In this document: positions 6,166 to 52,536 of the stretch, piece by piece
Layout: each line of letters starts with the position of its first letter
Numbering within the stretch: the stretch's first letter is position 1
Assembly (NCBI GenBank): GCA_016218545.1
Contig: JACRDQ010000038.1
Span: 66,986 to 130,985, forward strand
DNA from: Elusimicrobiota bacterium
GTDB taxonomy: Bacteria; Elusimicrobiota; Elusimicrobia; UBA1565; UBA9628
DNA length: 64,000 nucleotides
Direction: 5' to 3'
Made by a program: the position numbers and the translations under genes
Notes under the pieces: generated by a model
Seen by the model: only the letters and a program-made list of their open reading frames with translations
The model's database searches: none
What the model was told of the DNA's origin: nothing

Positions 6166-6217
6166 CCGGGGTCGACGCTGAAAGATCATGACCTATAGAA
6201 AAGGAAGGGTGGATACC

Positions 6218-18913: not shown

Positions 18914-18920
18914 GTTCAGG

Positions 18921-22526: not shown

Positions 22527-22574
22527 GCCTATATTGTATAGGACGACCCATGGAAGGGGGTTGGGCCTTCGGGG

Positions 22575-22595
22575 TTGTTCGGAGCGGTTATTGGA
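22575..22595 (-). terminator. Candidate terminator hairpin GGACCCAG-gcgct-CTGGGTCC after the gene for the lipoprotein with HEAT repeats
   Basis: An 8-bp perfect stem lies about 25 nt downstream of the stop at 22621. No clear U-tract. Confidence 0.3.
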
Positions 22596-22620
22596 CCCAG
22601 GCGCTCTGGGTCCAGGCGGC

Positions 22621-25713: not shown

Positions 25714-25724
25714 GGGACGCCCCG

Positions 25725-27023
25725 CTAGCGCGACCAGTCCGGGGTCGAGCTGGCTCCCGGAGCGTCGAGGAGCCGGTGCGGGGCCGAGCCGTCCGCGTCC
25801 ATGACGTAGACCTCGGGCCTTCCGCCGCGCGTGGTCACGAAGGTCAGGAAGCGGCCGTCGGGCGACCAGGAGGGGTCCTCGTTGGACCCTTCGCCGTGGG
25901 TGAGCTGGCGGACCTGGTTGCCGGTGACGTCCACGAGGAAGATGTCGATGGGGTCCTTGGGCCGGCTGCGGCCGGCGAAGGCGATCCACTCGCCGGTCGG
26001 AGACCACGAGGGGGAGTCGCACCAGTTCATGCGCGTGAGCTTCTTGGCGCGCTGGGTGGTCATGTCCAGGATGTAGACCTGCGGGTTGCCGGAGCGGTCG
26101 GACACGAAGGCGACTTGGCTTGCGTCCGGGGAGAAGGTCGGCGAGGTGTCCACCCCGGTGTGGTTGGTGAGCCTCGTGATGGAGCCGTCCGCGATGCCTT
26201 TGACGTAGATGTTCGGATGCTTCTGGCGCGAGAGGGTCATGAGCATCTGGTTGCCGTCGGGGGAGAAGCCGCCCGCCACGTTGAGGCCCTGCTCGTTGGA
26301 AAGGACCCGGGACTTGCCGGTCGCCAGGTCCAGCAGGAAGAGGTCGGGGTTGCCGTCCCTGTAGGAGGTGTAAGCCACGGTCTTGCGGTCAGGGCTCAGG
26401 CGCGGCAGCAGCGAGATGGCGCGGTGGTTCGTCAGGCGGCGGAGGTTGGCGCCGTCGTAGTCGGCCAGGTAGATCTCCTTGTTCCCGGTCTGACGGTTGG
26501 CGAAGGCGAGCTGGGAGTGCGCGATGCCGATCTTGCCGGTCAGGGCTTTGACGAGGTCGTCGGAGACGCGGTGCGCCAGGGAACGCCAGAACTGGGCGTC
26601 CTGCTGGTAGTAGCGGTCGAAGACCTGCTCTCCGGAGTTGAGGTCGGTCAGGGAGACCGTGAGGCTCACCTTCGGAGCCGCGCTGCCGGCTCCGGGGGCC
26701 GCGGCCTTGGCCGTCAGGATCCACCCGGCGCCGCGCAGCTTCCACTCCCGGCTGACCGCGGAGACCTGGCCGCCGTCGGGCGTGGGGCCGTCCTCGACGA
26801 TCCTGAAGTAGCGCGAGAACATGAGGTCCGCGCGGATGACCTCGCGCGTCTGCTGGGCCATGGCAGCGTCCTGGACCGAGCCCGGGTCATTGGCCGTGAA
26901 GGGGGGCAGCCCCAGGGGCAGGGCCTGGCCCGCCGAGGAGCCGGCGAGGCTGATGTAGACGTCCGCGGCCGAGGCCGGGACCGCGAGCAGGCCGGCGCAG
27001 AGCAGGGAGGCCAGGCCCGTCAT
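25725..27023 (-). CDS. tolB: TolB periplasmic beta-propeller protein
   Basis: The N-terminal TolB domain is followed by repeated SPDG blades (FSPDGNQML, FSPDASQVAFVSDRSGNPQVYI, WSPDGRFLTFVTTRGGRPEVYVMDADGS). Confidence 0.85.
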   Translation of the reverse strand: MTGLASLLCAGLLAVPASAADVYISLAGSSAGQALPLGLPPFTANDPGSVQDAAMAQQTREVIRADLMFSRYFRIVEDGPTPDGGQVSAVSREWKLRGAGWILTAKAAAPGAGSAAPKVSLTVSLTDLNSGEQVFDRYYQQDAQFWRSLAHRVSDDLVKALTGKIGIAHSQLAFANRQTGNKEIYLADYDGANLRRLTNHRAISLLPRLSPDRKTVAYTSYRDGNPDLFLLDLATGKSRVLSNEQGLNVAGGFSPDGNQMLMTLSRQKHPNIYVKGIADGSITRLTNHTGVDTSPTFSPDASQVAFVSDRSGNPQVYILDMTTQRAKKLTRMNWCDSPSWSPTGEWIAFAGRSRPKDPIDIFLVDVTGNQVRQLTHGEGSNEDPSWSPDGRFLTFVTTRGGRPEVYVMDADGSAPHRLLDAPGASSTPDWSR

Positions 27024-37640: not shown

Positions 37641-40100
37641 ATGACCACCCCGCTGCCGCTCGTCCTCGCCGCTCTCATCGGACTCTCCGGCCCGTGCGCG
37701 GCGCAGGGCGGGTCTTCTCCGGGTCCGGGCGACATCCCCGAGGACGTCCTGGAGTTGGTCGGCGGAGACGTCCCGGCGGAGACCACGGTCGAGCTCCCGG
37801 AGGAGGCCAAGGACCTCCCTCCTGAGCAGGACGTGACCTTCGATCCGAAGGAGAGGGAATCCTGGCAGGGCTGGGTGGCCTTCGAGACCTCGGCCAAGGA
37901 GAAGCTCAAGCGCCTGGAGTCTTTGAGCGACGAAGAGCTCTCCGGCCTGGAAGCCGAGATCATCAGGTTCACGGGCCAGGGCGTCAAGGACAAGGTCCTT
38001 TCCGGAGCGATCAACAAGCTCAACGAGCGCATCATCCAGCTGAGGAACACGCGGGCGCAGGAGGTCGCCGCCAAGCCGCCGACGACCCAGGCGGAGGCGG
38101 AGCAGCGCAACCGGCTGGACCGCGTCAGCGGGATGTTCGGCGAGATGTACAAGGGCATGGCCGTCCAGGAGATGAGGACGGACCCCCAGAGCCCTGAAGG
38201 CTTCTCCAGGTACGGTTTTGCGCTCGTCATGGAGGGGAAATACCGGCAGGCCGCGCCGGTGCTCGAGCGCGCCGTGCGGCTGGGGGCCAAGGACAGCCGG
38301 ACCTTCTCATCCTACGGCACCGCGGCCTTCCACCTCGGCGACTTCGCCCTGGCGCGCAGCGCAGCCGGCCGCGCGTTGAAGATCGACCCGCAGAACGACG
38401 CGGCCTTCGCGGTGATGCGGCTCTCCGAGGGCAAGAACCCGGCGGTGACCCTGCCCTCGGTCCTGACCGGAGGAGGGAGCGGGGAGGGGGTCTTCTCCGC
38501 GGCCGCCGGGAACGAGGCCGTGTCCGGAGCTCCTTCGGTGCAGGCCGGGGCTCAGCCGGCAGCGGCCGGCCGGGCTCCCATGGTCCTGAGGTCCCCGGAA
38601 GCGGGAAAGTCCTCCGCGTTCGCCAAGGAGGCTGCCGCGGCCCTGGCGGTCAAGGATTATCTCAGGGCCATCGAATCCGCGACCAGGGCCATCGAGGCCA
38701 ACGACGGCAATGCCCAGGCATGGAACTACCGCGCCATCGCGAACAGCAAGCTCGGCCGCTACGATGCCGCGGTCAGGGACGCGAGCCACGCCCTGGCCCT
38801 GGCGCCCAAGAATCCCGCGGCTCTCCACACCCGGTCCTGGGCCTTGAACAAGCTGGGCCGCTTCCAGGAGGGGCTGACGGACGCCGATGAGGTCCTGGCG
38901 CGGGAGCCGGACAACGCCTTCGCCCTGCAGAACCGCGCCTTCTCCCTGGCCGGGCTCGGGGACCGCAGGGGCATGCTCGCCGCGCTCAAGCGCGCGGCCG
39001 AGATCGAAAAGCGCTTCCAGGCCCGCTACGAGAAGGCCGTCCAGGTCCCCGAGAACGCGGACGTGCTCTTCCTCTTCGACCAGGACCCCGGGCTCAAGCC
39101 CGGGACCGCCCCTGAGGCCGAGGCCGGAGCCAAGGCCGGGCGGGGCCTCCTCATCCCGATCCTGGCCGGGGCCGGATTCCTGGCCGCCCTGGCCGCGGCG
39201 CTCTCCCTGGCCCGGTGGTGGAAGACCTCCTCTTCGGGCCTCGGCGCGTCCGGGAACGGCGGGGGCGCGGTCCTGCGGGCCAGGGGCGAGGCCGGTGCGT
39301 TCTGGAAGAAATACAAGCTGGTGCGCGAGGTCGGCAACGGCGGCATGGGCGTGGTCTACGAGGCCGAGGACACCTCCCTGGGACGGCGCGTGGCGATCAA
39401 GAAGATGCGCGACGAGATCCGGCTCGACCGCAAGGAGCGCGAGCGCTTCCTCCAGGAGGCCCGGACCGTGGCCTCGCTCCGGCACCCGAACATCGTGGAG
39501 ATCTACTCCATCGTCGAGGACGCAGGAGAGGTCTACCTCGTCTTCGAGTTTGCGGAAGGCAAGACCCTCCACGAGGTCCTCTCCGACGGCGCTCCGCTCC
39601 CCTTCGACGCGGCCCTGCGCGTGCTCAAGGACGCGTGCGAGGCCGTGGACTGCGCCCATCGCGCCAGGATCGTTCACCGGGACATCAAGCCCTCGAACAT
39701 CATGGTCACGGACAGCGGGCCGGCCAAGGTCATGGATTTCGGGGTGGCGCGGCAGGCCAAGGACGCGGCCACCAGGAGCACCGCGACCTCGGTGGCGGGC
39801 ACGCCTCCGTACATGGCTCCCGAGTCCGAGCAGGGCACGGTCGGGCCCCGGGGGGACGTCTACGGCCTGGCCGTGGTGTTCTACGAGATGCTGACCGGAA
39901 AGCTGCCTTTCGCCGGGACCGGGGCCGGCATGCTGCTCAACAAGATGAACCGCAAGTTCGACGCGCTCTCCCAGGCTGCGCCGGGCCTGCCCGCGGGCAT
40001 CGACGCGGTGATGTCGCGGGCCCTGGCTCCGGAGCCTGGCGAGAGGTTCAAGACCGCGGGAGAGTTCCTCGCCGCGGTCCAAGGGCTCAAGGCGTCCTGA
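37641..40100 (+). CDS. Receptor-type Ser/Thr protein kinase #1: signal peptide, extracytoplasmic TPR domain, TM helix, cytoplasmic Hanks-type kinase domain
   Basis: TPR repeats are present (AWNYRAIANSKLGRYDAAVRDASHALALAP...). The TM helix is LLIPILAGAGFLAALAAALSLA. Kinase motifs: VGNGGMGVVYEA, AIKKM, HRDIKPSN, DFGVAR, PPYMAPE. Confidence 0.85.
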   Translation: MTTPLPLVLAALIGLSGPCAAQGGSSPGPGDIPEDVLELVGGDVPAETTVELPEEAKDLPPEQDVTFDPKERESWQGWVAFETSAKEKLKRLESLSDEELSGLEAEIIRFTGQGVKDKVLSGAINKLNERIIQLRNTRAQEVAAKPPTTQAEAEQRNRLDRVSGMFGEMYKGMAVQEMRTDPQSPEGFSRYGFALVMEGKYRQAAPVLERAVRLGAKDSRTFSSYGTAAFHLGDFALARSAAGRALKIDPQNDAAFAVMRLSEGKNPAVTLPSVLTGGGSGEGVFSAAAGNEAVSGAPSVQAGAQPAAAGRAPMVLRSPEAGKSSAFAKEAAAALAVKDYLRAIESATRAIEANDGNAQAWNYRAIANSKLGRYDAAVRDASHALALAPKNPAALHTRSWALNKLGRFQEGLTDADEVLAREPDNAFALQNRAFSLAGLGDRRGMLAALKRAAEIEKRFQARYEKAVQVPENADVLFLFDQDPGLKPGTAPEAEAGAKAGRGLLIPILAGAGFLAALAAALSLARWWKTSSSGLGASGNGGGAVLRARGEAGAFWKKYKLVREVGNGGMGVVYEAEDTSLGRRVAIKKMRDEIRLDRKERERFLQEARTVASLRHPNIVEIYSIVEDAGEVYLVFEFAEGKTLHEVLSDGAPLPFDAALRVLKDACEAVDCAHRARIVHRDIKPSNIMVTDSGPAKVMDFGVARQAKDAATRSTATSVAGTPPYMAPESEQGTVGPRGDVYGLAVVFYEMLTGKLPFAGTGAGMLLNKMNRKFDALSQAAPGLPAGIDAVMSRALAPEPGERFKTAGEFLAAVQGLKAS

Positions 40101-40167
40101 CCGGGCTCGAGACAAAGAGGAAGCCCCCGGCGCGAGCCGGGGGCTTCCTCTTCGGCGCGGACCCGGG

Positions 40168-40452
40168 CTAGTTCTTCAGCACGATCTTCATCAAGGCTTG
40201 GCGGGCCTTGCCCGACTCAGCCTCGTTCTGGCAGAAGTCCCACCTGAAACCCTTGGGGAGGTTGCCTTGGTCGAGCAGGAAGCGCTCCGTGTCCATGCAT
40301 GCCTCGATGAGCGTCTGCTTCTTCGCGGCGTCTCCTCCGGCGAGGCGCTCTGCGACCTTGGGACAGAAGGTGTTTCCCGGCTCCCTTTGGCCCTGGGCGT
40401 AGACGATGCCGACGGTCACGGTCGTCAAAATGAGCGCGATGAGTTTTCTCAT
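40168..40452 (-). CDS. Small secreted 3-Cys protein (94 aa). Paralog of 37230-37553. Divergently paired with TPR-STK #2.
   Basis: The signal peptide is MRKLIALILTTVTVGIVYAQG. Cys residues are at FCPKV, EACMD and DFCQN. GGAGAGGAGGG RBS. Confidence 0.5.
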   Translation of the reverse strand: MRKLIALILTTVTVGIVYAQGQREPGNTFCPKVAERLAGGDAAKKQTLIEACMDTERFLLDQGNLPKGFRWDFCQNEAESGKARQALMKIVLKN

Positions 40453-40490
40453 AATCCCTCCTCTCCCAAGCAGGGAGTCAGCATTTCAAT

Positions 40491-40539
40491 CCCAGTATAA
40501 CAGGACCTCCTTGACAAATCAAGGGGGGGGCTGTACACT
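40491..40539. promoter_or_regulatory. Back-to-back promoter module, copy 2 (CCCAGTATAACAGG; TTGACA-N17-TACACT)
   Basis: TTGACA at 40511-40516 and TACACT at 40534-40539. ATG at 40555. The same architecture as copy 1. Confidence 0.6.
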
Positions 40540-40554
40540 AGGGATGGAGCGACC

Positions 40555-42906
40555 ATGAACCGCCTGAAGGCCTCGGCGCTTGCGCTGGCCTTGACCTCCT
40601 CTCTCTGGCTTCCCTCGGTCGTCCTCGTCGCCGAGGAGGACGCCGCGGGCGAGGATGAAGGCGACGTGGTGCGCGCGGTCCGCATCCGCGAGCTCATCTG
40701 GGGCGAGGTGCAGATCGAGGGCGACGTGACGCAGTACGTCACCCAGCTGCGCACGGAAATCAAGAGTTTGGAGGACAAGCAGCTCCGCGAGGACCTCCTG
40801 GTCGAGCTCGGCAAGAAGTTCGGCATGCCCGGCGACACCAGCCCCAGGCCCGAGGGAGGGGGGCCCAAGCCGGGCGAGTCAGGGTTCTCCGAGACCGTGG
40901 TGCTGGGGCTCAGGCGGAACATGCTGCCCGAATGGCGGCAGAACTCGCCCAACAACCCGGTGGCCTGGGCGGAGAACGGCTACCTCGACTGCTCGCTCCA
41001 GAACTACCGGGCCTGCCTGGCGAACCTCGGCCGGGCCATCGACCTCGGCATCAAGGACCCCAAGGCCTACGCGACCTACGGGAGCGCGGCCCACAATCTC
41101 GGCGACTACAAACTCGCCTTGAAGGCGGCCTCCGCGGCCTTGAAGCTCGACCCCGGGCACGAGGGCGCGCACGCGGTCTACAAACTCTCCGAGGGCAGGG
41201 TCTCCACGGTCGAGCTCCCGTCCTCCCTGCACGGCGACATCTTCGGAGGAGCTCCGGCCCTCCCGGCCGAGCCGGCCGCGGTGGACGCGCCTCCGCCGGC
41301 GCAGGCCGCGGGGGCCGTGGTGCCCGGGCGCGAGGCGGGCCCGGCTCCGGTCGTGCCCCAGGAGACCCAGCGCCGCATGACCGCGGCCGAGGTCGAGCGC
41401 TCCGCGGTCTTCACCCGCCAGGCCGCGGCGTCGCTGGCCGTGCGCGACTACGTGCAGGCCCACGAGGCGGCCAGCCGCGCCATCCAGATCAACCTTCGCA
41501 ACGCGCAGGCCTGGAACTACCGAGCCATCGCGAACAACAAGCTGGACCGCTACCAGGACGCGGTCTACGACGCGAGCTTCGCCTTGAACCTCGCTCCCGG
41601 GAACGCGGCGGCGCTCCAGAGCCGTTCGTGGGCCCACAACAAGTCCGGCAAATACCAGGAGGCGCTGGCGGACGCCAACTTCACCCTGGAGCGCGAGCCC
41701 GGCAACGCCTTCGCCTTCCAGAACCGGGCCTTCGCTCAGGCCGGGCTCAAGGACCGCGTGGGCATGCTGGAGTCCCTCAAGCGCTCCGCCGAGCTCGACC
41801 CCAGGTTCAAGCAGCGCTACGACGCGGCGCTCCAGGCGCCCGCGAGCGGCGACATCCTCTACCTCTTCGACGAGGAGTCCTCGGCCGGCAAGGCGGCTCC
41901 TCCGGCCTCGCCCGAGCGCATGCGCAAGCGCTTCCTCACCCTCTCGGCCGCGGTCGTCTCAGGGGGCCTGCTCATGGCCTTGGGCCTGCTGCACATCGTG
42001 TCCTCCGCCTGGAGGGAGAAGGTCCGCTCCACGGTCCGCCGGGTGCTCGGCGTGCCCACGCCCTCCTCCGGCCCCTCGGACCCGGCGACCGGGTCTCCTG
42101 CGAGCGGGGGCTTCTGGGGGCAGTACCGCCTCATCCGGGAGGTGGGCTTGGGAGGCATGGGCGTGGTCTACGAGGCGGTGGACACCGCACTCGACCGCCG
42201 GGTGGCCATCAAGAAGATGCGCGACGAGATCCGTCTCGACCGCAGGGAGCGCGAGCGCTTCCTCCAGGAGGCGCGGACCGTGGCCTCGCTCAAGCACCCC
42301 AACATCGTGGAGATCTTCTCGATCGTGGAGGACGGCGGGGACGTCTACCTCGTCTTCGAGTTCGCGGACGGCCGCACGCTATCAGCCCTGCTCGAGGAGG
42401 CCGGGAAGCTCCCCTTCGAGAAGGCCAAGGCCGTGCTCAAGGACGCGTGCGAGGCCGTGGACTGCGCCCACCGGCACAAGGTCGTGCACCGGGACATCAA
42501 GCCCTCGAACATCATGGTGACCGAGAGCGGAGCCGTGAAGGTCATGGACTTCGGTGTGGCGCGGCAGGCCAAGGAAGCGGCCACCAAGGTGATGACGAAC
42601 ACCGTGGCGGGCACCCCGCCTTACATGGCGCCTGAGGCGGAGCAGGGGACGGTCGGGCCCCAGTCGGACGTCTACGGGCTCGGGGTCGTGTTCTATGAGC
42701 TCCTCAGCGGGGAACTCCCGTTCGCAGGGCACGGGGCGGGCATGCTCCTCAACAAGCTCAACGGCAAGTTCATTCCCCTGTCCCAGGCGGCGTCCGGCCT
42801 GCCGACAGGCATCGACGCTGTGATGGCCCGGGTCCTGTCTCCGGACCCTGCCAAGCGCTATAAGAGCCCTACGGAGTTCTTCCAAGCTGTCCAAGGCCTT
42901 TCCTGA
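40555..42906 (+). CDS. Receptor-type TPR Ser/Thr protein kinase #2
   Basis: Same architecture as #1. The kinase domain is about 85% identical by eye (IKKMRDEIRLDRRERERFLQEARTVASLKHPNIVEIFSIVEDGGDVYLVFEFADG...). Confidence 0.85.
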   Translation: MNRLKASALALALTSSLWLPSVVLVAEEDAAGEDEGDVVRAVRIRELIWGEVQIEGDVTQYVTQLRTEIKSLEDKQLREDLLVELGKKFGMPGDTSPRPEGGGPKPGESGFSETVVLGLRRNMLPEWRQNSPNNPVAWAENGYLDCSLQNYRACLANLGRAIDLGIKDPKAYATYGSAAHNLGDYKLALKAASAALKLDPGHEGAHAVYKLSEGRVSTVELPSSLHGDIFGGAPALPAEPAAVDAPPPAQAAGAVVPGREAGPAPVVPQETQRRMTAAEVERSAVFTRQAAASLAVRDYVQAHEAASRAIQINLRNAQAWNYRAIANNKLDRYQDAVYDASFALNLAPGNAAALQSRSWAHNKSGKYQEALADANFTLEREPGNAFAFQNRAFAQAGLKDRVGMLESLKRSAELDPRFKQRYDAALQAPASGDILYLFDEESSAGKAAPPASPERMRKRFLTLSAAVVSGGLLMALGLLHIVSSAWREKVRSTVRRVLGVPTPSSGPSDPATGSPASGGFWGQYRLIREVGLGGMGVVYEAVDTALDRRVAIKKMRDEIRLDRRERERFLQEARTVASLKHPNIVEIFSIVEDGGDVYLVFEFADGRTLSALLEEAGKLPFEKAKAVLKDACEAVDCAHRHKVVHRDIKPSNIMVTESGAVKVMDFGVARQAKEAATKVMTNTVAGTPPYMAPEAEQGTVGPQSDVYGLGVVFYELLSGELPFAGHGAGMLLNKLNGKFIPLSQAASGLPTGIDAVMARVLSPDPAKRYKSPTEFFQAVQGLS

Positions 42907-42939
42907 ACCCTAATTTTCGGTAAAGAATGTTGTTCCAGC

Positions 42940-42968
42940 TTGACAAACCAGCCACCTCCCTATACACT
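42940..42968 (+). promoter_or_regulatory. Promoter copy 3, TTGACA-N17-TACACT, upstream of TPR-STK #3
   Basis: TTGACA at 42940-42945 and TACACT at 42963-42968. ATG at 43018. There is no divergent small gene here. Confidence 0.55.
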
Positions 42969-43017
42969 TATCACAGGGCGTGACCCGAGTTTTTGCCGGG
43001 TAGGAAGAGGAACTGCC

Positions 43018-45831
43018 ATGAACTTGAGAAATGCTTCGTTTTGCATGATTTTCATCGTTTGCCAGGCAGCGACGTTTAGCCTGGCCCAGGAAACTGCGTC
43101 CAAACAGGAGAGCGCGTCTCCCCAGAGTCTTCAGCTTGCCATGGAAGCCGCCTTCCCTCCTGCTCCGCACCGGGTGGTGGAAAGTCCGGATGGAGACACG
43201 GCGGCGGCCCTCCTGGCTACGGCTCCGAGCGGGGCCACCCTGGCCGAGGCCAACTTGCAGGTCCAACAGGCGAACAAGAAGGAGGGCAGGCGAGGGCGCA
43301 ACCCGGATCTGCCGCAGGTCATCGACGGCTTCTTCAAGAGAGGCACCTACGCGGAATTCGACAACATCCTCCAGAATTCCGACGATACAGGGGTCAAGTT
43401 CGGGATCTGGCAGCTGGTGCGCGGGTCCTACGGCTTCGCCAAGACCGAGAACGCGGTCAAGGACGGGGAGCTGGAGAAGGGCTCTGCCGAGTATGAGGGC
43501 GCGATCACCAGAGTCCATGGGCAATTCCGCACAGGGCTTGACGCTATCGACGGCAAACCCGTGCCCCAACTCGAAGGGACGCAGGGGCATGGCGGGGTGG
43601 ACAGGCGCAGGAGCCCGGAGTCTCGTCACGAGTACGGCCAGGCGCTGGGCAAGCTCCCGGACGGCCTTCAGCCGAGCAGTGAGTCTCTGGGAGCAGTGAC
43701 CACCAAGGACAAGAATGGGACGGACCAGATCGCCGGCTCCATCGAGGCGGCCAAGGCCTTGGTGGACACGACCGTGTCCGGAGTCCGCCAGGCGCTCGAG
43801 ACCAAGCTCGACTACGTGTTCGTGAGGGTCTGCGGAGGCCTTCCCAGCGCAGGGCAGGCGTGCGGCGGCAGTGAGACGCCCAAGCCCCCCACGCCTCCTG
43901 TCCCCGGCCCCGGCCCTGTTCCTGACCCGGTCCCCACCCCCACTCCTGGCCCTGTCGAGGATGGCCAGGGACAGCTCGACCAGGGGAACCCCCGGCAGGC
44001 TGCCGAGACCTTCGACCGGGCCATCGAGCGCGATCCATGGGACGTGCGAGCCATCGCGGGCAGGGCCCAGGCCAGCTATATGATGGGCGACTACCGCTTG
44101 GCGACAGGATTCTCCAAGGCCGCGCTGTCGCACGAGCCGGGCAACCAGGCCGCCTTCGCCACCTTGCGGCTTTCCGAGAACCGCTCTCCGAAGGCGTCGG
44201 CCTCCGCCGCGAGCGCTGCCGCGGCTGCTGGAGGAGGGAACGCCGAGCTTTTCGCCGCGAGCGCGGTCACCGGGGCGGGCGCTTCCTCGGGCTTCAAGCT
44301 GGATGCGACCCGGCCTGAGGCGGTCCAATCAGCGGCCCAGGTCAAGCTTGCCGAGAAGGCCCTGCGGGTCGGGGATTTCGCCGCTGCGCGGTCCTACTCG
44401 ACCCGCGCCCTGGAGCTCAACCCGAAGAACGGGCAAGCCCTCTTCTACCGCTCCGTGGTCAATGCCAATGGCCGCGACTATGCCGGTGCCCTGGCGGATG
44501 CCGAGGCCGGGCTCGCCCTGGTGCCGAACAATGCAGCGCTTCTCAATTCCAAGGCCTTCGCCCTCAACCGGATGGGAAAGTACAAGGACGCCTTGGCCGC
44601 TTCCGAGGCCGCCCTGCTCGTCAACCCCAGGGACGCCTCGGCCCTGGCCAACCGCGCCTACGCGGTGGGCGGGCTGGGGGACAGGGCCGCCATGCTTGAG
44701 AACCTGCGCGCCGCGGCCTCCATCGACCCGAGGTTCCAGTCCAGCCTCGAGTCCGCCCTGCAGATGCCCGATGACTCGGACCTGCTCTTCCTCTTCCCCG
44801 GCGAGGCCGGGCCGGCCCACGCCCGTTCGGGCGCGGTGCCCGAGCGCGGCAAGAGCCGGAGCCTGCGCACCCTCGGCTTGGCCGTGGTGGGCGTGCTGCT
44901 CGCGGCCGGTCTCTTCGCCTTCGCCACCGGAGGCCGCAGGGACGCGGCCCTCCCGGCCGCGGCCGGCAACGTCCCGGCCCCGGCCGACGGGCCCGTCCCG
45001 CAGCAGGGCGTGAGCACCCTGCTGCGCAACCAGTACGAGATCATCCGCCAGATCGGGGCCGGAGGCATGGGCGTGGTCTTCGAGGGCCTCGACCGCGCCC
45101 TCAGGCGCAAGGTGGCCATCAAGAAGATGCGCGAGGAGATCCGGCTCAACGCCAAGGAGCGGGAGCGCTTCCTCACCGAGGCCAAGACCGTGGCCTCCCT
45201 GCACCACCCCAACGTGGTCGACATCTACTCCATCGTGGAGGACGACGACGTCTACCTGGTCTTCGAGCACGTCTCCGGCGCCACGCTCCACGAGCGCATC
45301 CACCGCGACGGGCCCCTGCCCCTGGCCGAGGCCGTGGCCGTGTTCCAGGGCATCGCCGCGGCCCTGGACGCGGCTCATGGCCGCGGCATCATCCACCGCG
45401 ACCTCAAGCCCTCCAACGTCATGATCGACGAGGAGGGCAGCGCGAAGGTGATGGACTTCGGGGTGGCCCGGGTCGCCAAGGACGCGGCGGGCAGGTACTC
45501 GATGACCAACACCGTGATGGGGACGCCGCCCTACATGGCGCCGGAGCAGGAGACCGGGGTCGTGCGCAAGGAGGGAGACGTCTACTCCATGGCGATCTGC
45601 CTCTACGAGACCCTGACCGGGCAGCAGCCCTTCGCGGGCATGGGCGCGGGCATGCTCCTCAACAAGATGAACGCGTCCTTCGCTCCGGCGACCAAGACGA
45701 ATCCTGTCCTGCCCCAAGGCATCGACGCTGTCTTCTCCAAGGCGTTCGCGGCCGACCCGGATAAGCGCTACGCCTCGGCGGGCGAGTTCATGAAGGCCGT
45801 AGAAGCCGCGGCCGGGGTCCCGAAGGCGTGA
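43018..45831 (+). CDS. Receptor-type TPR Ser/Thr protein kinase #3
   Basis: Signal peptide MNLRNASFCMIFIVCQAATFSLAQE. A longer extracytoplasmic region with a Pro-rich stretch and TPRs is followed by a TM helix and a kinase domain (IGAGGMGVVFEG, HRDLKPSN, DFGVAR, PPYMAPE). The 42940 TTG start given in the track is rejected. Confidence 0.8.
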   Translation: MNLRNASFCMIFIVCQAATFSLAQETASKQESASPQSLQLAMEAAFPPAPHRVVESPDGDTAAALLATAPSGATLAEANLQVQQANKKEGRRGRNPDLPQVIDGFFKRGTYAEFDNILQNSDDTGVKFGIWQLVRGSYGFAKTENAVKDGELEKGSAEYEGAITRVHGQFRTGLDAIDGKPVPQLEGTQGHGGVDRRRSPESRHEYGQALGKLPDGLQPSSESLGAVTTKDKNGTDQIAGSIEAAKALVDTTVSGVRQALETKLDYVFVRVCGGLPSAGQACGGSETPKPPTPPVPGPGPVPDPVPTPTPGPVEDGQGQLDQGNPRQAAETFDRAIERDPWDVRAIAGRAQASYMMGDYRLATGFSKAALSHEPGNQAAFATLRLSENRSPKASASAASAAAAAGGGNAELFAASAVTGAGASSGFKLDATRPEAVQSAAQVKLAEKALRVGDFAAARSYSTRALELNPKNGQALFYRSVVNANGRDYAGALADAEAGLALVPNNAALLNSKAFALNRMGKYKDALAASEAALLVNPRDASALANRAYAVGGLGDRAAMLENLRAAASIDPRFQSSLESALQMPDDSDLLFLFPGEAGPAHARSGAVPERGKSRSLRTLGLAVVGVLLAAGLFAFATGGRRDAALPAAAGNVPAPADGPVPQQGVSTLLRNQYEIIRQIGAGGMGVVFEGLDRALRRKVAIKKMREEIRLNAKERERFLTEAKTVASLHHPNVVDIYSIVEDDDVYLVFEHVSGATLHERIHRDGPLPLAEAVAVFQGIAAALDAAHGRGIIHRDLKPSNVMIDEEGSAKVMDFGVARVAKDAAGRYSMTNTVMGTPPYMAPEQETGVVRKEGDVYSMAICLYETLTGQQPFAGMGAGMLLNKMNASFAPATKTNPVLPQGIDAVFSKAFAADPDKRYASAGEFMKAVEAAAGVPKA

Positions 45832-45885
45832 ACAGGTTCGGGGCCTGGGGGAAGGGAGGGGCGCAGATTTTGTACAATAGCAGTA

Positions 45886-45935
45886 GGAAATCCTGATGAA
45901 AAGGATTTCCTTCCTGAACGCTCTGCGTTCAGGAA
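45886..45935 (+). terminator. Two adjacent hairpins between the STK #3 gene and ssrA
   Basis: GGAAATCCT-gatgaaa-AGGATTTCC (45886-45910) and TTCCTGAACG-ctctg-CGTTCAGGAA (45911-45935). No U-tract. Confidence 0.35.
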
Positions 45936-45942
45936 GGCATAT

Positions 45943-46293
45943 GGGGGTGAATAGGTTCGACAGCTGCCTCTAGGTCGTTGGCAGCAGGCCCTGGTTGGTC
46001 AGCGCCAGGATAAAAGCCGACCAAAACAACAAAAGCCAACTCACAGTTGGCCTGGGCCACCGCCTAATAAGCGCGTAGCCTACGCCGGTCCCTGACACCT
46101 GCTGGGGGAGCGCCGGCGTCATGAGCAGGCTGGACGGCCGCACCGCGCGTTTCGTCGGGGCGGACGTCGAGAACAAAACGGAACAACTCGGGAGCACCTG
46201 TCCGCCGGTTTTCCCGGGTCGTGCCGGCGGACTAAGCCTGTAGCGGCCGCGGCGGGAGACGGTTGGACTCGAGTGCGATTCTCGACACCTCCA
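45943..46293 (+). ncRNA. ssrA: tmRNA (transfer-messenger RNA, ssrA). Predicted tag ORF GCC AAC TCA CAG TTG GCC TGG GCC ACC GCC TAA TAA (ANSQLAWATA**).
   Basis: The 5' end is GGGGGUGAAUAGGUUCGACAG. The 3' end is GGACUCGAGUGCGAUUCUCGACACCUCCA. The acceptor stem GGGGGUG pairs with CACCUCC and includes a G3:U70 wobble. A 5-bp T-stem (UCGAG/CUCGA) with a 7-nt loop abuts the acceptor strand. The discriminator is A and CCA is not encoded. The A-rich tract ACCAAAACAACAAAA precedes the resume codon, and there is a double stop UAAUAA. Total length is about 351 nt. Confidence 0.85.
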
Positions 46294-46297
46294 AGAT

Positions 46298-46336
46298 TTC
46301 CGCGGGAGCCCGAAAGGGCTCCCGCGGAGCTATTTG
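46298..46336 (+). terminator. Rho-independent terminator of ssrA (GNRA-looped hairpin followed by a T-rich tract)
   Basis: TTCCGCGGGAGCCC-gaaa-GGGCTCCCGCGGAG then CTATTTG, starting 5 nt after the tmRNA discriminator. Confidence 0.6.
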
Positions 46337-46351
46337 ATACAATGAACATCG

Positions 46352-47668
46352 GTGTTTGACTACCGCTTCGTCACCCTGCTCGGCGCGACCCTGGTCTTCG
46401 CCCCGCTGTCGGTCCTCTTCATCTTCATCTCCGGCATGGGTCCGGGCCTCTTCCCTCTCTACGGGCTCATCTTCCTCTGGTGCGACTACCGCAGGGAGGC
46501 CGAGGCGCACGTCATCTTCCTCTTCATGGTGACCACCGCCGGGGTCGTGCTCGCGGCCTCCGCCGCAGCGCAGCGGAACGTGCTCGGAGCCGAGATCCTC
46601 GGGATGTGGATCCTGGTATGGGCCCTGGGCCTCCATCACCGGCGGGGCGCCGATGTCCTGCACGAGGCCCGGGAGGAGATGGCCAAGCTGGCCGGGTCCC
46701 TGCGGGACGACGAGTCCGAGTTGACGCGACTCAACGCCTATCAGGCGAGCGCCGCGGTCCAGATCGGCCTGCGCCAGGACCTCACCGAGAGCGCGCGCAG
46801 CCTGGGCTCGACGCTCGACGGCCGCGAGGTCCACGTCCGATTGAACGGCATCCTCTGCGCGCGCTTTGCGGGCAGCAGGGTGCGCATCCAGGCCTGGGCT
46901 TCGGGGGACCCCCTGCTCGAGTTGGCGATGAAGGCCGGGACCGTGGCCCTGGTCAAGGACACGGCCACGGACGCGCGCTTTTCCTCGGGCGGGGCGGGCT
47001 TCCGCTCCGGGATGGCGGCCCCGCTGAAGGTCATGCGCCAGTCCGCGGGCTTCGTCAAGGTCGAGTCGGACCAGGCCGGCGCGTTCGGCACGCAGGAGGT
47101 CCAGTCCCTGGACCTCATCACCACCATGGCGTCCCTGAGCCTGGAGAACATCCGGCTCTACGAGACCGTGCAGGAGCAGGCCACGCACGATCCGCTGACC
47201 GGGCTCTTCAGCCACCGGGCCTTCCAGGCCAGGCTGCACGAGGAGCTCCTCCGCGCCGGACGCAGCCAGACCCCGGTGTCCTTCATCCTCTGCGACGTGG
47301 ACCACTTCAAGACCTACAACGACCGCTACGGCCACCAGGCCGGAGACTCCCTGCTCAGGTCCGTGGCGTCCATGCTCGCGTCCTTCGCCCGGCCGGTGGA
47401 CTTCCCGGCCCGCTACGGCGGAGAGGAGTTCTGCCTCGTGCTGCCGAGCGTCCCGCTCGCCGAGGCCCTGGACCTGGCCGAGCGCCTGCGCGCCCGCGTC
47501 GAGGCCGAATCTTTCGTTTTCCAGGGCGTCAAGACCGGGGCCACGATGAGCCTGGGCGTGTCCGCTTTCCCCCAGGACGCCACCACCGCCAGCCAGATCG
47601 TGCGCGTGGCCGATGAGCGGCTCTACCGCGCCAAAGCCGGGGGCCGCAACAGGGTGGCGGGGGTCTGA
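46352..47668 (+). CDS. Membrane GAF-GGDEF diguanylate cyclase #1 (GTG start)
   Basis: It has 3-4 N-terminal TM helices, a GAF-like region and a GGDEF domain with RYGGEEF and DPLTGLFSHRAF. Its stop overlaps the start of the next GGDEF gene. Confidence 0.75.
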   Translation: MFDYRFVTLLGATLVFAPLSVLFIFISGMGPGLFPLYGLIFLWCDYRREAEAHVIFLFMVTTAGVVLAASAAAQRNVLGAEILGMWILVWALGLHHRRGADVLHEAREEMAKLAGSLRDDESELTRLNAYQASAAVQIGLRQDLTESARSLGSTLDGREVHVRLNGILCARFAGSRVRIQAWASGDPLLELAMKAGTVALVKDTATDARFSSGGAGFRSGMAAPLKVMRQSAGFVKVESDQAGAFGTQEVQSLDLITTMASLSLENIRLYETVQEQATHDPLTGLFSHRAFQARLHEELLRAGRSQTPVSFILCDVDHFKTYNDRYGHQAGDSLLRSVASMLASFARPVDFPARYGGEEFCLVLPSVPLAEALDLAERLRARVEAESFVFQGVKTGATMSLGVSAFPQDATTASQIVRVADERLYRAKAGGRNRVAGV

Positions 47669-48945
47669 TGCTGGAGCTCGCCTTCCTTTCCTTGGCTCCG
47701 GCCGCGGGCCTGCTGGCCGCCTATCCCCGCCGGGTCTCGGGCGCGGTCTTCGCGGCCGCGGTCGCCCTGGCGGGTTCGGCCGCCGCTTTCGTCCTCTACG
47801 CGCCCGGCGACCGGCCCCTCGCACTCGGGGTCGGGCTCTGGAGCGTGGCGGGCTCGCTCTACGCCATCCACCTCTCCCGCAGGGAGCTGCGCGAGCACGG
47901 CCACGTCAGGGACAAGGTCGCCCAGCTCCGGGCCCGCCGCGTGGACACGGCCAAGGCCGTGGCCGAGGCCCGGTCCCGCAGCGAGGAGACCCAGCGCAAC
48001 CACAAGGAATCCACCGCCCTCTACGCCATGGTCAAGGGCCTCTCCGCGGCCATCTCCTGGGACGAGATCAAGCCGAGGCTCGAGGCCGCGGTGGACCAGT
48101 ATCTCGGGGTGTCGGGCTTCGCCCTGTACGTGGCCGGGATGCGCGGCGAGGACGATTTCCAGCCCCTGGCCGGCCGCAACCTGGCGGGCTCGCCCGGGAG
48201 CGCCTGGGCGACCCTGGGCCGCCGCCTGCAGGAGGCGGCCCTGAGCCCCTGGCAGGCCCACATCCTCGACCGGCCGGAGAAGGCCCTGTGCGTCCCGGTG
48301 CTCGACAACGCCGAGCTCCTCGGCGTCCTCTACCTGCGCCTGCCCGACGCCGCGGACCCTCGCGCCCTGCTGGGCAAGGCCTCCGCTTTCGCCGGAGAGG
48401 TGGCGTTCGCCTTCCGCAGGGTGAAGCTCTTCCAGGAGATGGAGCGGCTCTCCCAGATCGACGGCCTCACCGGCGTCCACCGCCGCGGGAGCTTCGACGA
48501 GCGCCTCCGCGACGAGACCGTGCGCTCCAGGACCTTCAAGACGACCTTCTGTCTGCTCATCCTCGACATCGACCATTTCAAGAGCCTCAATGACCGCTAC
48601 GGCCACCCCTTCGGCGACCAGGTCCTCCGGCGCATCGGCGAGGTCCTCAACCACTCCTTCTACGAGACAGATTTCGTCGCGCGCTACGGCGGAGAGGAGT
48701 TCGCGGTCATCCTGCCCCGGGCCCAATACGACGGGGCCCGCCGCAAAGCGGAGGCCGTGCGCACCGCCATCGAGTCCGAGTCGTTTGCGATCGCCCTGGA
48801 TACGGTCCGGGTGACGGTCTCGATCGGCGTGGCGCACTTTCCGAGGGACGCGGCGACCCCTGAGGAGCTCGTCTCCCAGGCGGACCAAGCGCTCTACCGG
48901 GCCAAGAGCCTGGGGCGCAATAGGGTGGTGGAGTTCACACGATGA
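47668..48945 (+). CDS. Membrane GAF-GGDEF diguanylate cyclase #2 (paralog)
   Basis: Same architecture as #1, with RYGGEEF and IDGLTGVHRRGSF. There is an ATGA overlap with sppA. Confidence 0.75.
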   Translation: MLELAFLSLAPAAGLLAAYPRRVSGAVFAAAVALAGSAAAFVLYAPGDRPLALGVGLWSVAGSLYAIHLSRRELREHGHVRDKVAQLRARRVDTAKAVAEARSRSEETQRNHKESTALYAMVKGLSAAISWDEIKPRLEAAVDQYLGVSGFALYVAGMRGEDDFQPLAGRNLAGSPGSAWATLGRRLQEAALSPWQAHILDRPEKALCVPVLDNAELLGVLYLRLPDAADPRALLGKASAFAGEVAFAFRRVKLFQEMERLSQIDGLTGVHRRGSFDERLRDETVRSRTFKTTFCLLILDIDHFKSLNDRYGHPFGDQVLRRIGEVLNHSFYETDFVARYGGEEFAVILPRAQYDGARRKAEAVRTAIESESFAIALDTVRVTVSIGVAHFPRDAATPEELVSQADQALYRAKSLGRNRVVEFTR

Positions 48946-49979
48946 CCGAGAATAACGACTCAGGACCGCAGCCGCAACACCCGGAGCACCCGACGGATCA
49001 TCACGTCGCCGGCTCCAGGCGCGTCAAAAGGCGCCTCATGCTCGCCGTCGTCGGGCTCTACGTCCTGTCCCTGGCCGCGGCCGCCGTGGTCGCGGTCCGG
49101 GCGCCGCTGGGCAAGAAGGGCGCCAAGGACGGGGATGATTCCGTGCTCGGGCTCACCTCCAAGGAGACGGTGGGCTGGGTCTCCATCCACGGCGCCATCT
49201 ACAACGACGGTCCCCGCACCTGGGACCGGGGCGCCTACCAGTGGGCGCGCCGCATCCGCCTGATGGCCGAGACCAAGGGGGTCAAGGCCATCGTCCTCGA
49301 CATCAACTCCCCGGGCGGGAGCGTGGGCGCTGTCCAGGAGCTCTACAGCCAGATCAAGCGCGTGCGCAAGGAGTTCAACATCCCCGTCGTGGCGCTCTTC
49401 GGAGACATCGCGGCCTCGGGCGGGTACTACATCGCGGCGGCCTGCGACCGCATCGTCGCCCACCCCGGGTCGCTGACGGGCTCGATCGGCGTCATCTTCA
49501 GCGTCGACAACGTGGAGGGCCTCTTCAGCAAGATCGGCTACAAGAGCGAGCCCATCAAGTCCGGCCAGCACAAGGACATCGGGTCCTGGTCCCGGACCAT
49601 GACCAAGGAGGAGCGCGAGATCCTCCAGAGCATCATCATGGACGCCTACGACCAGTTCCTCACCGCCATCAGCACGGGCAGGAACATGCCCATGGAGAAG
49701 CTCCGGCCCCTGGCCGACGGCAGGATCTACACCGGCAACCAGGCCCTGGAGGCGGGGCTCGTGGACGTCATCGGCGACGCCGAAGACGCGGTGGAGCTGG
49801 CGGCCAAGCTCGGCCACATCGTGGGCAAGCCCAAGGTCAAGCGCGAGCCCGACACCCGGCAGATGTTCATGGACCTCTTCGAGTCGCGCGCCGGAGCCGG
49901 CGTCAAGAGTCCGATCGAGTGGCTGACCGGCCTCGGGGTCCGGGCCGGGCTCGAGTACCGCTGGACGGGCGGGCTATGA
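48942..49979 (+). CDS. sppA: Signal peptide peptidase SppA (S49, 36K type)
   Basis: TM anchor is present. The S49 core is IVLDINSPGGSVGA...GDIAASGGYYIAAACDRIVAHPGSLTGSIGV. Confidence 0.8.
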   Translation: MTENNDSGPQPQHPEHPTDHHVAGSRRVKRRLMLAVVGLYVLSLAAAAVVAVRAPLGKKGAKDGDDSVLGLTSKETVGWVSIHGAIYNDGPRTWDRGAYQWARRIRLMAETKGVKAIVLDINSPGGSVGAVQELYSQIKRVRKEFNIPVVALFGDIAASGGYYIAAACDRIVAHPGSLTGSIGVIFSVDNVEGLFSKIGYKSEPIKSGQHKDIGSWSRTMTKEEREILQSIIMDAYDQFLTAISTGRNMPMEKLRPLADGRIYTGNQALEAGLVDVIGDAEDAVELAAKLGHIVGKPKVKREPDTRQMFMDLFESRAGAGVKSPIEWLTGLGVRAGLEYRWTGGL

Positions 49980-50557
49980 TGAGCGCGGCCGAGGTCGTCT
50001 TCGACTACTTCGAGGACCATACCCGGAGCGCGGACAGCGTCAGGCACTCCCGGCCCGCGGCCCTGGGCCTGCTGTGCTTCGCGCTCACCGGGGTGAGCGT
50101 CTTCATGGCCCAGGCCGTCCTGGGCAGGCTCGCCCCGTTCTCGCTCTCCGTGACCTCCATGGTCCTCATGGCCATCTGGGAGATCGTGCTGGGCCTGGCC
50201 TTCACGGCCATGCTCCACCTCGTCATGGAGTTCGAGGGCATCCAGGGCAGCGCGGCCTCCCTTTTCGCGCTCATGGGTCTGGCGAGCCTGGTGTGGGCAC
50301 TGACCGTGCCCCTGGCCCTGATCCTGAGGCTCGTGGCCCCGGGCAACGGCTGGCTGGCCACGGCGGCCTTCACCCTGGTGGGGCTGCTCAGCCTGGGCTA
50401 CAAGGCGCGGAGCATCCAGGACAACTACCAGGTGGGCGCGGCCCGGGCGTGGATCACCCTCTTCGTGCCCTACGCCGCCGTGGTCGTGGCGGCCCTGCTG
50501 GTCTTCGCCGTGGCCATGGTGACCATGTTCCGGCAGATCCTCCAGTGGGTGTCATGA
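49976..50557 (+). CDS. Polytopic membrane protein (Yip1-like, 5 TM)
   Basis: The ATG overlaps the sppA stop. It is hydrophobic throughout. The domain assignment is tentative. Confidence 0.4.
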   Translation: MMSAAEVVFDYFEDHTRSADSVRHSRPAALGLLCFALTGVSVFMAQAVLGRLAPFSLSVTSMVLMAIWEIVLGLAFTAMLHLVMEFEGIQGSAASLFALMGLASLVWALTVPLALILRLVAPGNGWLATAAFTLVGLLSLGYKARSIQDNYQVGAARAWITLFVPYAAVVVAALLVFAVAMVTMFRQILQWVS

Positions 50558-51288
50558 GGGAACCTCTCCCCAAGACCTTCCAGGGACTCCCCGTGGTCAG
50601 CGCCGGGGTCATGCGCCTGCTCGACCGCGCCGCGACCGAGCGCTTCAAGATCGCGGAGCTCGCGCTCATGGAGAACGCGGGCAAGGGCGTGGCCCTGCGC
50701 GCCCTCGAGTTCCTCCAAGGGCCCCTGGCCAAGGCTCCGGACCAGGCCTCGGTGGTGGTCTGCTGCGGCCGGGGAGCCAACGGCGGCGACGGCCTCGTGG
50801 CCGCGCGCTTCCTCAAGGAGGCCGGGGCCAAGGTGCGCGTCTTCATCTGCCCTGCCAAGGACGGCGGCTATCCGGTCTCGGTGGCGGCCAACCTCGAGCG
50901 GCTCAAGGCCGCAGGCGTCTCGGCCGAGCCCGTGGAGACGACCGAGCCCCTGGCCGCGGCGCTCAAGGACGCGCACCTGCTGCTCGACGCCCTTCTGGGG
51001 ACCGGGGCCAGCGGCAAGCCCACCGGCACGATCCGGCAGATCATCCAGGCCGTGACGCGCTCCAAGGTCCCTGTCCTGGCCGTGGACGTGCCCTCCGGCA
51101 TCCATCCCGACACCGGCTACCACAGCGGCGTGTACGTGACCGCCGCGGTGACGCTGACCCTCGGCCTGGCCAAGAGGGGCCTGGTGGCCCCGCACGCCAA
51201 GAAGTACGTGGGCGGCCTGGAGGTCCTCGATATCGGCTACCCGCCGGAGCTCATCCGGGAGGTGGCTCGTGCCCAGGAGATCCCTTAG
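50554..51288 (+). CDS. nnrE: NAD(P)H-hydrate epimerase (YjeF N-terminal domain protein)
   Basis: The diagnostic segment is VVVCCGRGANGGDGLVAARFL...LLDALLGTGASGKP...VLAVDVPSG. The ATG overlaps the upstream stop. Confidence 0.65.
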   Translation: MREPLPKTFQGLPVVSAGVMRLLDRAATERFKIAELALMENAGKGVALRALEFLQGPLAKAPDQASVVVCCGRGANGGDGLVAARFLKEAGAKVRVFICPAKDGGYPVSVAANLERLKAAGVSAEPVETTEPLAAALKDAHLLLDALLGTGASGKPTGTIRQIIQAVTRSKVPVLAVDVPSGIHPDTGYHSGVYVTAAVTLTLGLAKRGLVAPHAKKYVGGLEVLDIGYPPELIREVARAQEIP

Positions 51289-51943
51289 AGCGCCAAGGCC
51301 CTCCCAGGTTTCTTTAGGCGCTCTTAGCCTCCTTCTGGCCGCGGGCCTGCTCGCCGCCTGCGGCAAGTCCCCTGCCCCGGCCGGAGACGGCAAGACCCCC
51401 TTCAAGCCCCGACCGGGCGCGCGCTTCGCGGTCTTGAAGACCTCCAAGGGCACGATCAAGGCCATGCTCTACGCCAGGGAGGTCCCGGCCACGGTCGCCG
51501 TGTTCACCGGGTTGGCCGAGGGGACCAGGGTCTGGACCGACCCGAAGACCGGCAGGAAGGTCTCGGGAAAGCGCTACTACGACGGCTTGACCTTCCACCG
51601 CGTCGTCCCCGGCTTCATGATCCAGACCGGAGACCCCACGGCCAAGGGCGGCGGTGGGGCGGGCTTCACCTTCAAGGACGAGTTCCGCAAGGACCTCAAG
51701 TTCGACCGGCCCGGCATGCTGGGCATGGCCAACTGGGGTCCTGACACCGGCAACGGGCAGTTCTTCATCACCCTGGCCTCCAGACCGGACCTCAACGGCA
51801 TGCATACCGTCTTCGGCGAGGTCATCAGCGGGCTCTCGGCGGCCCATGCCATCGCCGAGGTCCCGCGGGACGAGTTCGACAGCAAGGACAAGCCCTTAAA
51901 GCCCGTGTACCTGGAGTCGGTGACGGTCAAGGACAAGCCATGA
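51269..51943 (+). CDS. Cyclophilin-type peptidyl-prolyl cis-trans isomerase, lipoprotein
   Basis: The lipobox is LLAACG. The cyclophilin core is GLTFHRVVPGFMIQTGDP...MANWGPDTGNGQFFITL. Confidence 0.8.
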   Translation: MPRRSLRAPRPSQVSLGALSLLLAAGLLAACGKSPAPAGDGKTPFKPRPGARFAVLKTSKGTIKAMLYAREVPATVAVFTGLAEGTRVWTDPKTGRKVSGKRYYDGLTFHRVVPGFMIQTGDPTAKGGGGAGFTFKDEFRKDLKFDRPGMLGMANWGPDTGNGQFFITLASRPDLNGMHTVFGEVISGLSAAHAIAEVPRDEFDSKDKPLKPVYLESVTVKDKP

Positions 51944-52536
51944 TCAAGACCCTGCGCTTTTGTTTCCCCGCGTCCCTCCTGCTCCCGTTCTGCGGCTGCC
52001 TGGGGGTGGAGAGCTACACCCTGACCCTGGATTGGGGCGCCCTGCAGGGGGAGTTCGTCTACCACGACATCGTCTCCACCGAGTCCGCGGAGGGCAAGGT
52101 CGCGGAGGATTTCGCGGAGCTCAAGAAGATGCTGGCTGAACCGAACATCCCGTTCGAGATTTCCGAGACCTCCGGCGTCCTGAAGGTCACGGACAAGGAG
52201 CTGTTCCGGGAGGGGGATGCCCTCTCCGGCCGGGTCCGCTTCCAGCTCCTCTGCGCGTCATGGGGGTGCGCCAAGGAGGCGGTGCTGAGGGCGATTCTCG
52301 ATGAGTCGTGCTCGGCCGGAAACGGCGAGGTCTTCCTCGTGCTGGACCGGAAGGGGAGTCTGCGGACCGACGGCAGCGTGCTCGACACCAAGAAGAGCCG
52401 CGTCGTGGTCTGGCCGGAGGACGCCAAGGTCTTCACCCTGACCGTGAAGAGCGCCGACTCCTCGTGCCGCGGCAAGTGCCGTTCTCTCCTCCATCTCTGG
52501 CTCAAGGACCCTGCGGGGGCAGGTTCGTTGCATTGA
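51940..52536 (+). CDS. Hypothetical lipoprotein, 198 aa
   Basis: The lipobox is LPFCGC. Start overlaps the upstream stop. No other motifs. Confidence 0.4.
   Translation: MIKTLRFCFPASLLLPFCGCLGVESYTLTLDWGALQGEFVYHDIVSTESAEGKVAEDFAELKKMLAEPNIPFEISETSGVLKVTDKELFREGDALSGRVRFQLLCASWGCAKEAVLRAILDESCSAGNGEVFLVLDRKGSLRTDGSVLDTKKSRVVVWPEDAKVFTLTVKSADSSCRGKCRSLLHLWLKDPAGAGSLH

Follow-up and report, generated by a model that had tools for sequence, protein, structure and literature searches.

The 64,000-nucleotide stretch of Elusimicrobiota DNA analysed here (the window; 64 kb) contains a structurally intact tmRNA whose helices covary, whose acceptor stem has the alanine identity pair, and whose tag frame is conserved. 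The encoded tag, ANSQLAWATA, ends in Thr-Ala in place of the common Ala-Ala. With a probability of about 0.8, the gene represents the functional ssrA of an uncultivated, GC-rich member of the Elusimicrobiota in which the ending W-A-(T/V)-A serves as a clade-fixed degradation signal, most likely still read by an AAA+ protease, with ClpXP as the default candidate. The terminal Ala-Ala of ssrA tags is among the most conserved short bacterial signals and the main handle for ClpXP, and a clade fixed for Thr-Ala or Val-Ala would constitute a natural experiment on the co-evolution of a degron and its receptor. This reading is directly testable, as a closed clade genome exists (CP096137.1, with the tag ANTQLAWATA) and a sister lineage still ends its tag in Ala-Ala.

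Identity and structure of the tmRNA gene

A single tmRNA was identified in the window, in agreement with an earlier note that had recognized the gene from the sequence alone. ARAGORN reported a one-piece gene on the forward strand with the tag coded at gene positions 93-128, and the Rfam model RF00023, the sole family above threshold within the 64 kb, matched over its full length (45943-46294, model 1-374 of 374) with 109.2 bits against a gathering score of 47 (E 9.1e-42). The features on which the earlier call was based, including a G3:U70 acceptor stem, a T-arm, an A-rich resume context, and a double UAA stop, are all read directly in the sequence (Table 1). The acceptor stem is GGGGGUG/CACCUCC, and the G:U at pair 3:70 is present in 21 of 21 relatives. 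The A-rich stretch CAAAACAACAAAA immediately precedes the resume codon GCC, which sits 12 nt past pseudoknot PK1, and the TAATAA double stop (46065-46070) lies in the loop of helix 5.

The structure was tested on an alignment of 21 distinct sequences in which the acceptor stem, both PK1 stems, the resume hairpin, helix 5, and the T-arm were named. Across the 38 named pairs, 93.7% of cells were paired, compared with 31-53% when the partners were slid by 1-3 columns, and 13 pairs had changed on both sides; the observed values were reached by no shuffle. Both PK1 stems were 95-100% paired, each with three pairs changed on both sides, and RNAalifold, applied to 13 sequences, found compensatory changes in 41 of 88 pairs. 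For PK2-PK4, the evidence consists of their alignment to the covariance model and a partial prediction as nested helices. No 3'-terminal CCA is encoded in the window (46293-46297), where CACCUCCA is followed directly by AGA. CCA is also unencoded in L021 (…CCA followed by GGA) and L088 and imperfect in L048, L089, and L103 (L numbers denote the collected loci); most other clade members encode CCACCA.

Table 1. Features of the tmRNA gene and its surroundings, in window positions.
Feature	Position	Strand	Evidence or remark
Three TPR + Ser/Thr kinase genes	37641-45831		Upstream of the tmRNA
Candidate -10 promoter element TACAAT	45873-45878	+	Inferred from conservation
5' leader, two tandem hairpins (predicted)	45886-45937	+	RNA fold; ends 5 nt before the mature 5' end
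One-piece tmRNA (ssrA) gene	45943-46293	+	ARAGORN, RF00023, covariation in 21 relatives; 3' end is discriminator A46293
Acceptor stem, 5' strand	45943-45949	+	Pairs with 46286-46292; includes G3:U70
Pseudoknot PK1	45990-46024	+	Stems CCUGG/CCAGG and UUGGUC.GC/GC.GACCAA
Tag frame GCC AAC TCA CAG TTG GCC TGG GCC ACC GCC TAA TAA (ANSQLAWATA, two stops)	46035-46070	+	ARAGORN, Rfam, relatives
Predicted resume hairpin GCCAAC(...)GUUGGC, resume codon in stem	46035-46051	+	RNAalifold, single-sequence fold
Helix 5, stop codons in loop	46054-46081	+	5' strand made up of the W, A, T, and A codons; RNAalifold and covariation
T-arm UCGAG-UGCGAUU-CUCGA, variant loop with G at position 55	46269-46285	+	5/5 stem pairs with compensatory changes
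Terminator-like hairpin, 14 bp, GAAA loop	46298-46329	+	T-run (CTATTTG) weak
Two GGDEF genes	46352-48945 (second 47668-48945)		Downstream of the tmRNA
S49 peptidase (SppA)	48942-49979		After the GGDEF pair; matches NCBIfam SppA domain model TIGR00706

Conservation and origin of the tag ending

Relatives were gathered by three tag-independent routes: a 21-nt pattern from the tmRNA 5' end run against one genome per species, a PK1 pattern run against JGI metagenomes, and homologues of the neighbouring SppA. The clade accounted for 7 of the 75 loci in the 5'-end scan, the rest being mostly unrelated matches and tmRNAs of other phyla, and 4 of the 12 metagenome matches to the PK1 motif were rejected as chance matches in coding DNA. 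ARAGORN missed or mis-framed L036, L069, L078, L080-L082, L084, L087, and L089, and their tags were read by hand from alignments. Among the loci of other phyla, those of Omnitrophota (L003-L075) have long tags with the conserved core A(E/D)K(T/L)SWNERAVGP...(P)FA(L)PFAA, and many carry an SmpB homologue within ~1 kb of the tmRNA.

More than 20 distinct clade tmRNAs are 70-95% identical to that of the window, among them those of two Elusimicrobiota groundwater MAGs (L023, 95%; L021, 94%); the flanking DNA is ~81% identical to L023. The SppA of the window is 100% identical to the NCBI entry 'MAG: signal peptide peptidase SppA [Elusimicrobia bacterium]'. The earlier note had described the tag ending as atypical, and comparison with these relatives upholds that description, W-A-(T/V)-A being invariant in the clade (Table 2). 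The residues preceding LAWATA vary (ANSQ-, ANSP-, ANTQ-, ANTP-, ANVNT-, ANTNT-, or ANNMSP-), and indels involve whole codons only, between the A-N start and the L-A-W-A-T-A end. Synonymous changes occur in the Leu codon (TTG/CTG), both Ala codons (GCC/GCT/GCG), and the Thr codon (ACC/ACT), and the sole penultimate replacement is Thr to Val (ACC to GTC), which requires two nucleotide changes and is isosteric.

Table 2. Tags encoded by members of the clade.
Tag	Locus
ANSQLAWATA	Window, L021, L023, L091-93, L103
ANSPLAWATA	L069, L078, L080, L087, L088
ANTQLAWATA	L090, L094, L096/97, L099-102
ANTPLAWATA	L030
ANVNTLAWATA	L036
ANTNTLAWATA	L084
ANNMSPLAWATA	L048 = L083
ANRLNTVAWATA	L082
ANSQLAWAVA	L077
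ANKLSTLDWAVA	L081

The earlier note deduced the tag correctly but allowed that its resume codon might be wrong, a doubt now dispelled: the covariance-model scan keeps GCC at 46035, in the same frame as ARAGORN, and yields no ...LAA tag. Nothing beyond the unusual ending and the unencoded CCA would speak for a mis-assigned resume codon hiding a canonical tag, or for a decaying copy or a remnant of island integration, and such explanations are scarcely credible. The neighbouring frame passes the double stop to a later UGA, no alternative resume codon is conserved, the two tools that agree on the frame are independent, and the upstream resume codon that ARAGORN chose for L087 is out of frame in the window. 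These explanations are further opposed by the full-length covariance-model match, the covarying helices, the presence of no other tmRNA in the window, the lack of a 3'-end repeat, and the position of the gene in conserved clade synteny. Whole-codon indels, synonymous changes, and the out-of-frame alternative in L087 together indicate that the frame is fixed. Since the ending is likewise fixed across the clade, it represents a real lineage-specific variant and not a reading error, and in annotation, -TA or -VA tag endings should not be taken for frame errors.

Two more distant members of the phylum bear on the direction of change. L089 (JACRDN01, GCA_016218575.1) is a more distant Elusimicrobia MAG whose SppA and tmRNA are 61% and 69% identical to those of the window, and its tag, AMNRLTARDWAFAA, ends in ...DWAFAA, thus sharing the W-A core of the clade but retaining Ala-Ala. 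The Endomicrobia MAG L042 carries the tag ANTYAYAA, which likewise ends in Ala-Ala, unlike the clade. Because both end in Ala-Ala, the T/V-A ending is derived within the phylum, and the atypical ending is a real, clade-wide, derived variant of the ssrA tag end. At the codon level, L089 reads TGG GCC TTC GCT GCC TAA and the clade TGG GCC ACT GCC TAA, with one codon fewer after W-A; the T/V-A ending apparently arose through loss of one codon from an ending of the ...x-A-A type.

Genomes labelled Bipolaricaulota or 'uncultured Thermotogae' (L013, L016, L033, L043, L070) encode tags ending in -GAVA, -GALA, -GAFA, or -GTLA, so a hydrophobic residue followed by Ala, instead of Ala-Ala, is not unique to the Elusimicrobiota clade. 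These tags differ from those of the clade in their length of ~30 residues, their unrelated sequence, the canonical UUC T-loop of their tmRNAs, and the lack of Trp. Within the tag-independent sample, a Thr-Ala ending was found only in this clade. Of 432 Elusimicrobiota genomes, 352 are included in a curated collection of 97,179 tmRNA sequences published in 2025 (PMC11915505), and the clade sequences are therefore probably already on file. The literature searched, including the paper describing that database, whose supplements give per-phylum counts, contained no discussion of this ending; searches with motif strings (LAWATA and similar) returned surnames only, and searches combining tmRNA and Elusimicrobia returned nothing on tags.

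RNA helices within the tag frame

The tag-coding region is also predicted to be extensively base-paired. In the resume hairpin, the resume and Asn codons (GCCAAC) would pair with GUUGGC, which spans the Leu-Ala codons; the 6 bp of this stem are 92.9% paired in the 21 sequences, and its loop carries all of the tag length variation. One compensatory double change was found in L096 (GCCAAU/AUUGGC), and both substitutions are synonymous. A base-paired resume codon would be unusual for a tmRNA. In helix 5, the third base of the Thr/Val codon and the base opposite it change together, forming U-A in 14 sequences and C-G in 7. All six terminal codons thus fall within predicted RNA helices, the resume hairpin and helix 5, and part of their nucleotide conservation is accordingly structural and not peptide-driven.

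This overlap raises the possibility that the tag is not a degradation signal at all, that the tmRNA only releases ribosomes, and that the LAWATA codons are held in place by RNA structure. In model bacteria, the indispensable function is the release of ribosomes rather than proteolytic tagging. Nevertheless, synonymous changes at 4 of the 6 codons and the compensated third position of the Thr codon preserve the amino acids, the sole two-nucleotide replacement yields an isosteric residue, and ordinary tmRNAs with proven degron tags show the same overlap between helix and tag end, so that a release-only role is very unlikely. The combination of synonymous and compensated changes shows that the peptide is also under selection.

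The proposed degradation signal and its candidate protease

Judging from the tmRNA family and the features of this gene, the RNA would be transcribed with a structured leader of ~57 nt that RNase P trims, would receive CCA post-transcriptionally given that none is encoded, and would be charged with alanine by AlaRS on account of its G3:U70 pair. Together with SmpB, it would enter stalled ribosomes, restart translation at GCC (46035), and end it at UAA UAA, so that the peptide (A)ANSQLAWATA, of which 10 residues are encoded, would be appended. W-A-(T/V)-A, a short apolar C-terminus with a free carboxylate, may then act as a degradation signal for an AAA+ protease, most likely ClpXP with a binding pocket adapted to a beta-branched penultimate residue. 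In E. coli, engineered tags ending in -LVA turn over about as fast as those ending in -LAA. Three features of the tag (its canonical length, apolar end, and terminal Ala) make ClpXP the default candidate, as does the use of engineered -LVA tags as degradation tags in E. coli (PMC9382460).

The tmRNA belongs to the same RNA family as E. coli ssrA (tag AANDENYALAA), and the two have the G3:U70 pair, the T-arm, and PK1 in common; in both, the resume codon is a GCN triplet preceded by A-rich sequence, and helix 5 holds the stop codon in its loop. Both tags have 10 encoded residues, begin with A-N, carry an aromatic residue close to the C-terminus, and finish with Ala. They differ in the penultimate residue, which is Thr here (Val in some relatives) instead of Ala, and in the aromatic residue, which is Trp at -4 instead of Tyr at -5; further differences are the unencoded CCA, G55 in the T-loop, and the predicted base-pairing of the resume codon. 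A consensus from 708 tags reads A*AN--ALAA (PMC5041485), and degrons ending in Ala-Ala-COO- form a class recognized by ClpXP (PMC7652416). The C-terminal Ala-Ala of ClpXP C-motif-1 degrons is replaced here by Thr-Ala, and clade-wide by Thr-Ala or Val-Ala, with the terminal Ala kept. In E. coli, ClpXP has a higher KM for tags in which the penultimate or last Ala is mutated, and ClpX contacts the tag through pore-1, pore-2 (T199, V202), and RKH-loop residues (PMC7652416); an unadapted ClpX would therefore be expected to bind -TA less well. The engineered E. coli variant LVA combines a penultimate Val with a final Ala, like the -AVA of L077 and L081 (PMC9382460). LVA, AAV, and ASV are laboratory constructs on the E. 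coli tag, and a penultimate Thr was not among the described variants that were found.

Alternatively, W-A-(T/V)-A may send proteins to Lon, FtsH, or a C-terminal processing protease and not to ClpXP. Such a switch is improbable. Free-living bacteria with genomes of ~3.8 Mb, like that of L099, are expected to have ClpXP. In its favour, Ala-Ala, most important for ClpXP (PMC7652416), has been lost in every clade member, and tag and protease have switched together in Mollicutes, another natural lineage without an Ala-Ala end, where tags ending in ...NYAFA are read by Lon (PMC9382460, PMC8403727) and a hydrophobic penultimate residue precedes Ala. Mollicutes, however, lack ClpXP and have long tags (27 residues in M. 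pneumoniae) (PMC8403727, PMC9382460); the tag of the window is short and ends in WATA, not in the ...AFA of Mollicutes-type Lon tags, and its 10-residue length, apolar C-terminus, and retained terminal Ala set it apart from the 27-residue Mycoplasma tag (PMC8403727).

Genes for these factors were sought among the collected loci. Neither the 64-kb window nor any Elusimicrobiota locus collected contains clpX, clpP, lon, ftsH, or smpB. In tblastn searches of all collected loci with approximate sequences of E. coli ClpX, ClpP, and SmpB as queries, SmpB matches were confined to the vicinity of tmRNAs from other phyla (Omnitrophota in most cases), and the Elusimicrobiota loci gave no match to a Clp protein. 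SspB is a proteobacterial adaptor and is not expected in Elusimicrobiota. A more far-reaching proposal, tentative and rather doubtful, is that the change of the tag signal from ...x-A-A to W-A-(T/V)-A in a broad clade of groundwater and soil Elusimicrobiota was accompanied by a matching receptor change, either in the pore-2/RKH loops of ClpX or in another protease or adaptor. If true, this would be a second natural case of tag/protease co-evolution after Mollicutes, and the altered pair could be used as an orthogonal degradation tag in the manner of the Mesoplasma Lon system.

The T-loop variant

The T-loop UGCGAUU (46274-46280) has G in place of the U55 of tRNAs and most tmRNAs. This variant is common to the clade and to Omnitrophota tmRNAs, the latter with canonical tags. 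In a set of ~40 tmRNAs with an identical 5' 21-mer, a D-loop analogue (window 45951-45956) that reads AGG always accompanies UGC(R)AUU, in the Elusimicrobiota clade and Omnitrophota, and GGG always accompanies UUC(R)AUU, in Bipolaricaulota/'Thermotogae', Endomicrobia, and others. This pattern resembles the concerted change of a tertiary pair, with G18:U55 replaced by A18:G55. As G55 always co-occurs with AGG, also where tags are canonical, it appears to be a tolerated covarying variant.

More aberrant T-loops still occur in L081 (2325-2687), L082 (280-641), and L084 (719-1057), where GGCAGUG is borne on a GCCGG/CCGGC stem and the equivalents of U54 and A58 have both become G. The L069 tmRNA (1-440, minus strand) is nearly identical to that of L078 until the two diverge within the T-loop (…GGGUGCGAU, then CAGGUUGG…), and it is truncated by the end of the contig. 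An interrupting intron such as those documented in PMC11915505 could account for this, as could a misassembly.

Flanking sequences and gene neighbourhood

Upstream of the tmRNA, the segment TTTT(G)GTACAATA is kept in the window, L023, L021, and L068, and the surrounding sequence diverges. A consensus sigma-70 scan found no full promoter upstream of the tmRNA, so the candidate -10 element is proposed from conservation. The interval that follows possibly forms a structured precursor leader: its predicted fold has an energy of -30.3 kcal/mol (z = -5.7 relative to shuffles), and both stems are kept through compensatory changes in L023, L021, and L068. The leader matched no Rfam family, even at E up to 1. 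A hammerhead-like reading of its CUGAUGA was dropped because the remaining core is absent and no Rfam family matches. On the 3' side, the GNRA-loop terminator proposed in the earlier note corresponds to the hairpin of Table 1, with its weak T-run, and a similar hairpin lies 3' of the tmRNA gene in L021.

The tmRNA lies between the kinase array and the GGDEF genes, as first described. Throughout the clade, the genes follow the order kinase(s)-tmRNA-[two GGDEF]-SppA-192-aa protein-YjeF_N-cyclophilin (window 37641-52536; L088-L103), and L081, L082, L089, and L094 lack the GGDEF pair directly 3' of the tmRNA. The tmRNA-SppA neighbourhood is common to L089 and the window. Acquisition of the GGDEF pair as an island at the tmRNA 3' end was considered and rejected, as neither an integrase nor an att-like repeat is present and SppA begins within the second GGDEF gene. 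In line with the initial reading, no integrase domain was detected among the 40 larger ORFs of the window, and a search of the whole window for the final 21 nt of the tmRNA, allowing up to 3 mismatches, found no further copy. The S49 peptidase, which scores below the cutoff of full-length SppA models, was also discarded as a candidate tag protease: by eye, it seems to be anchored in the membrane by a hydrophobic stretch at its N-terminus, and its adjacency to the tmRNA is thus most simply inherited gene order.

Elsewhere in the window, three consecutive very large ORFs (15287-26022, minus strand; 1208, 1201, and 1133 aa) are recognizable only in small parts: HEAT repeats and two domains, one of the MFS type and one resembling the Rce1 CAAX protease. 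At 5173-8656, a multihaem c-type cytochrome (paired CXXCH, NrfB/MtrC-like matches) adjoins an MtrB/PioB-type outer-membrane porin (E 2.6e-114); by its sequence matches, this is a predicted MtrAB-like module for extracellular electron transfer, and it is flanked by a HAMP histidine kinase and a sigma-54 activator.
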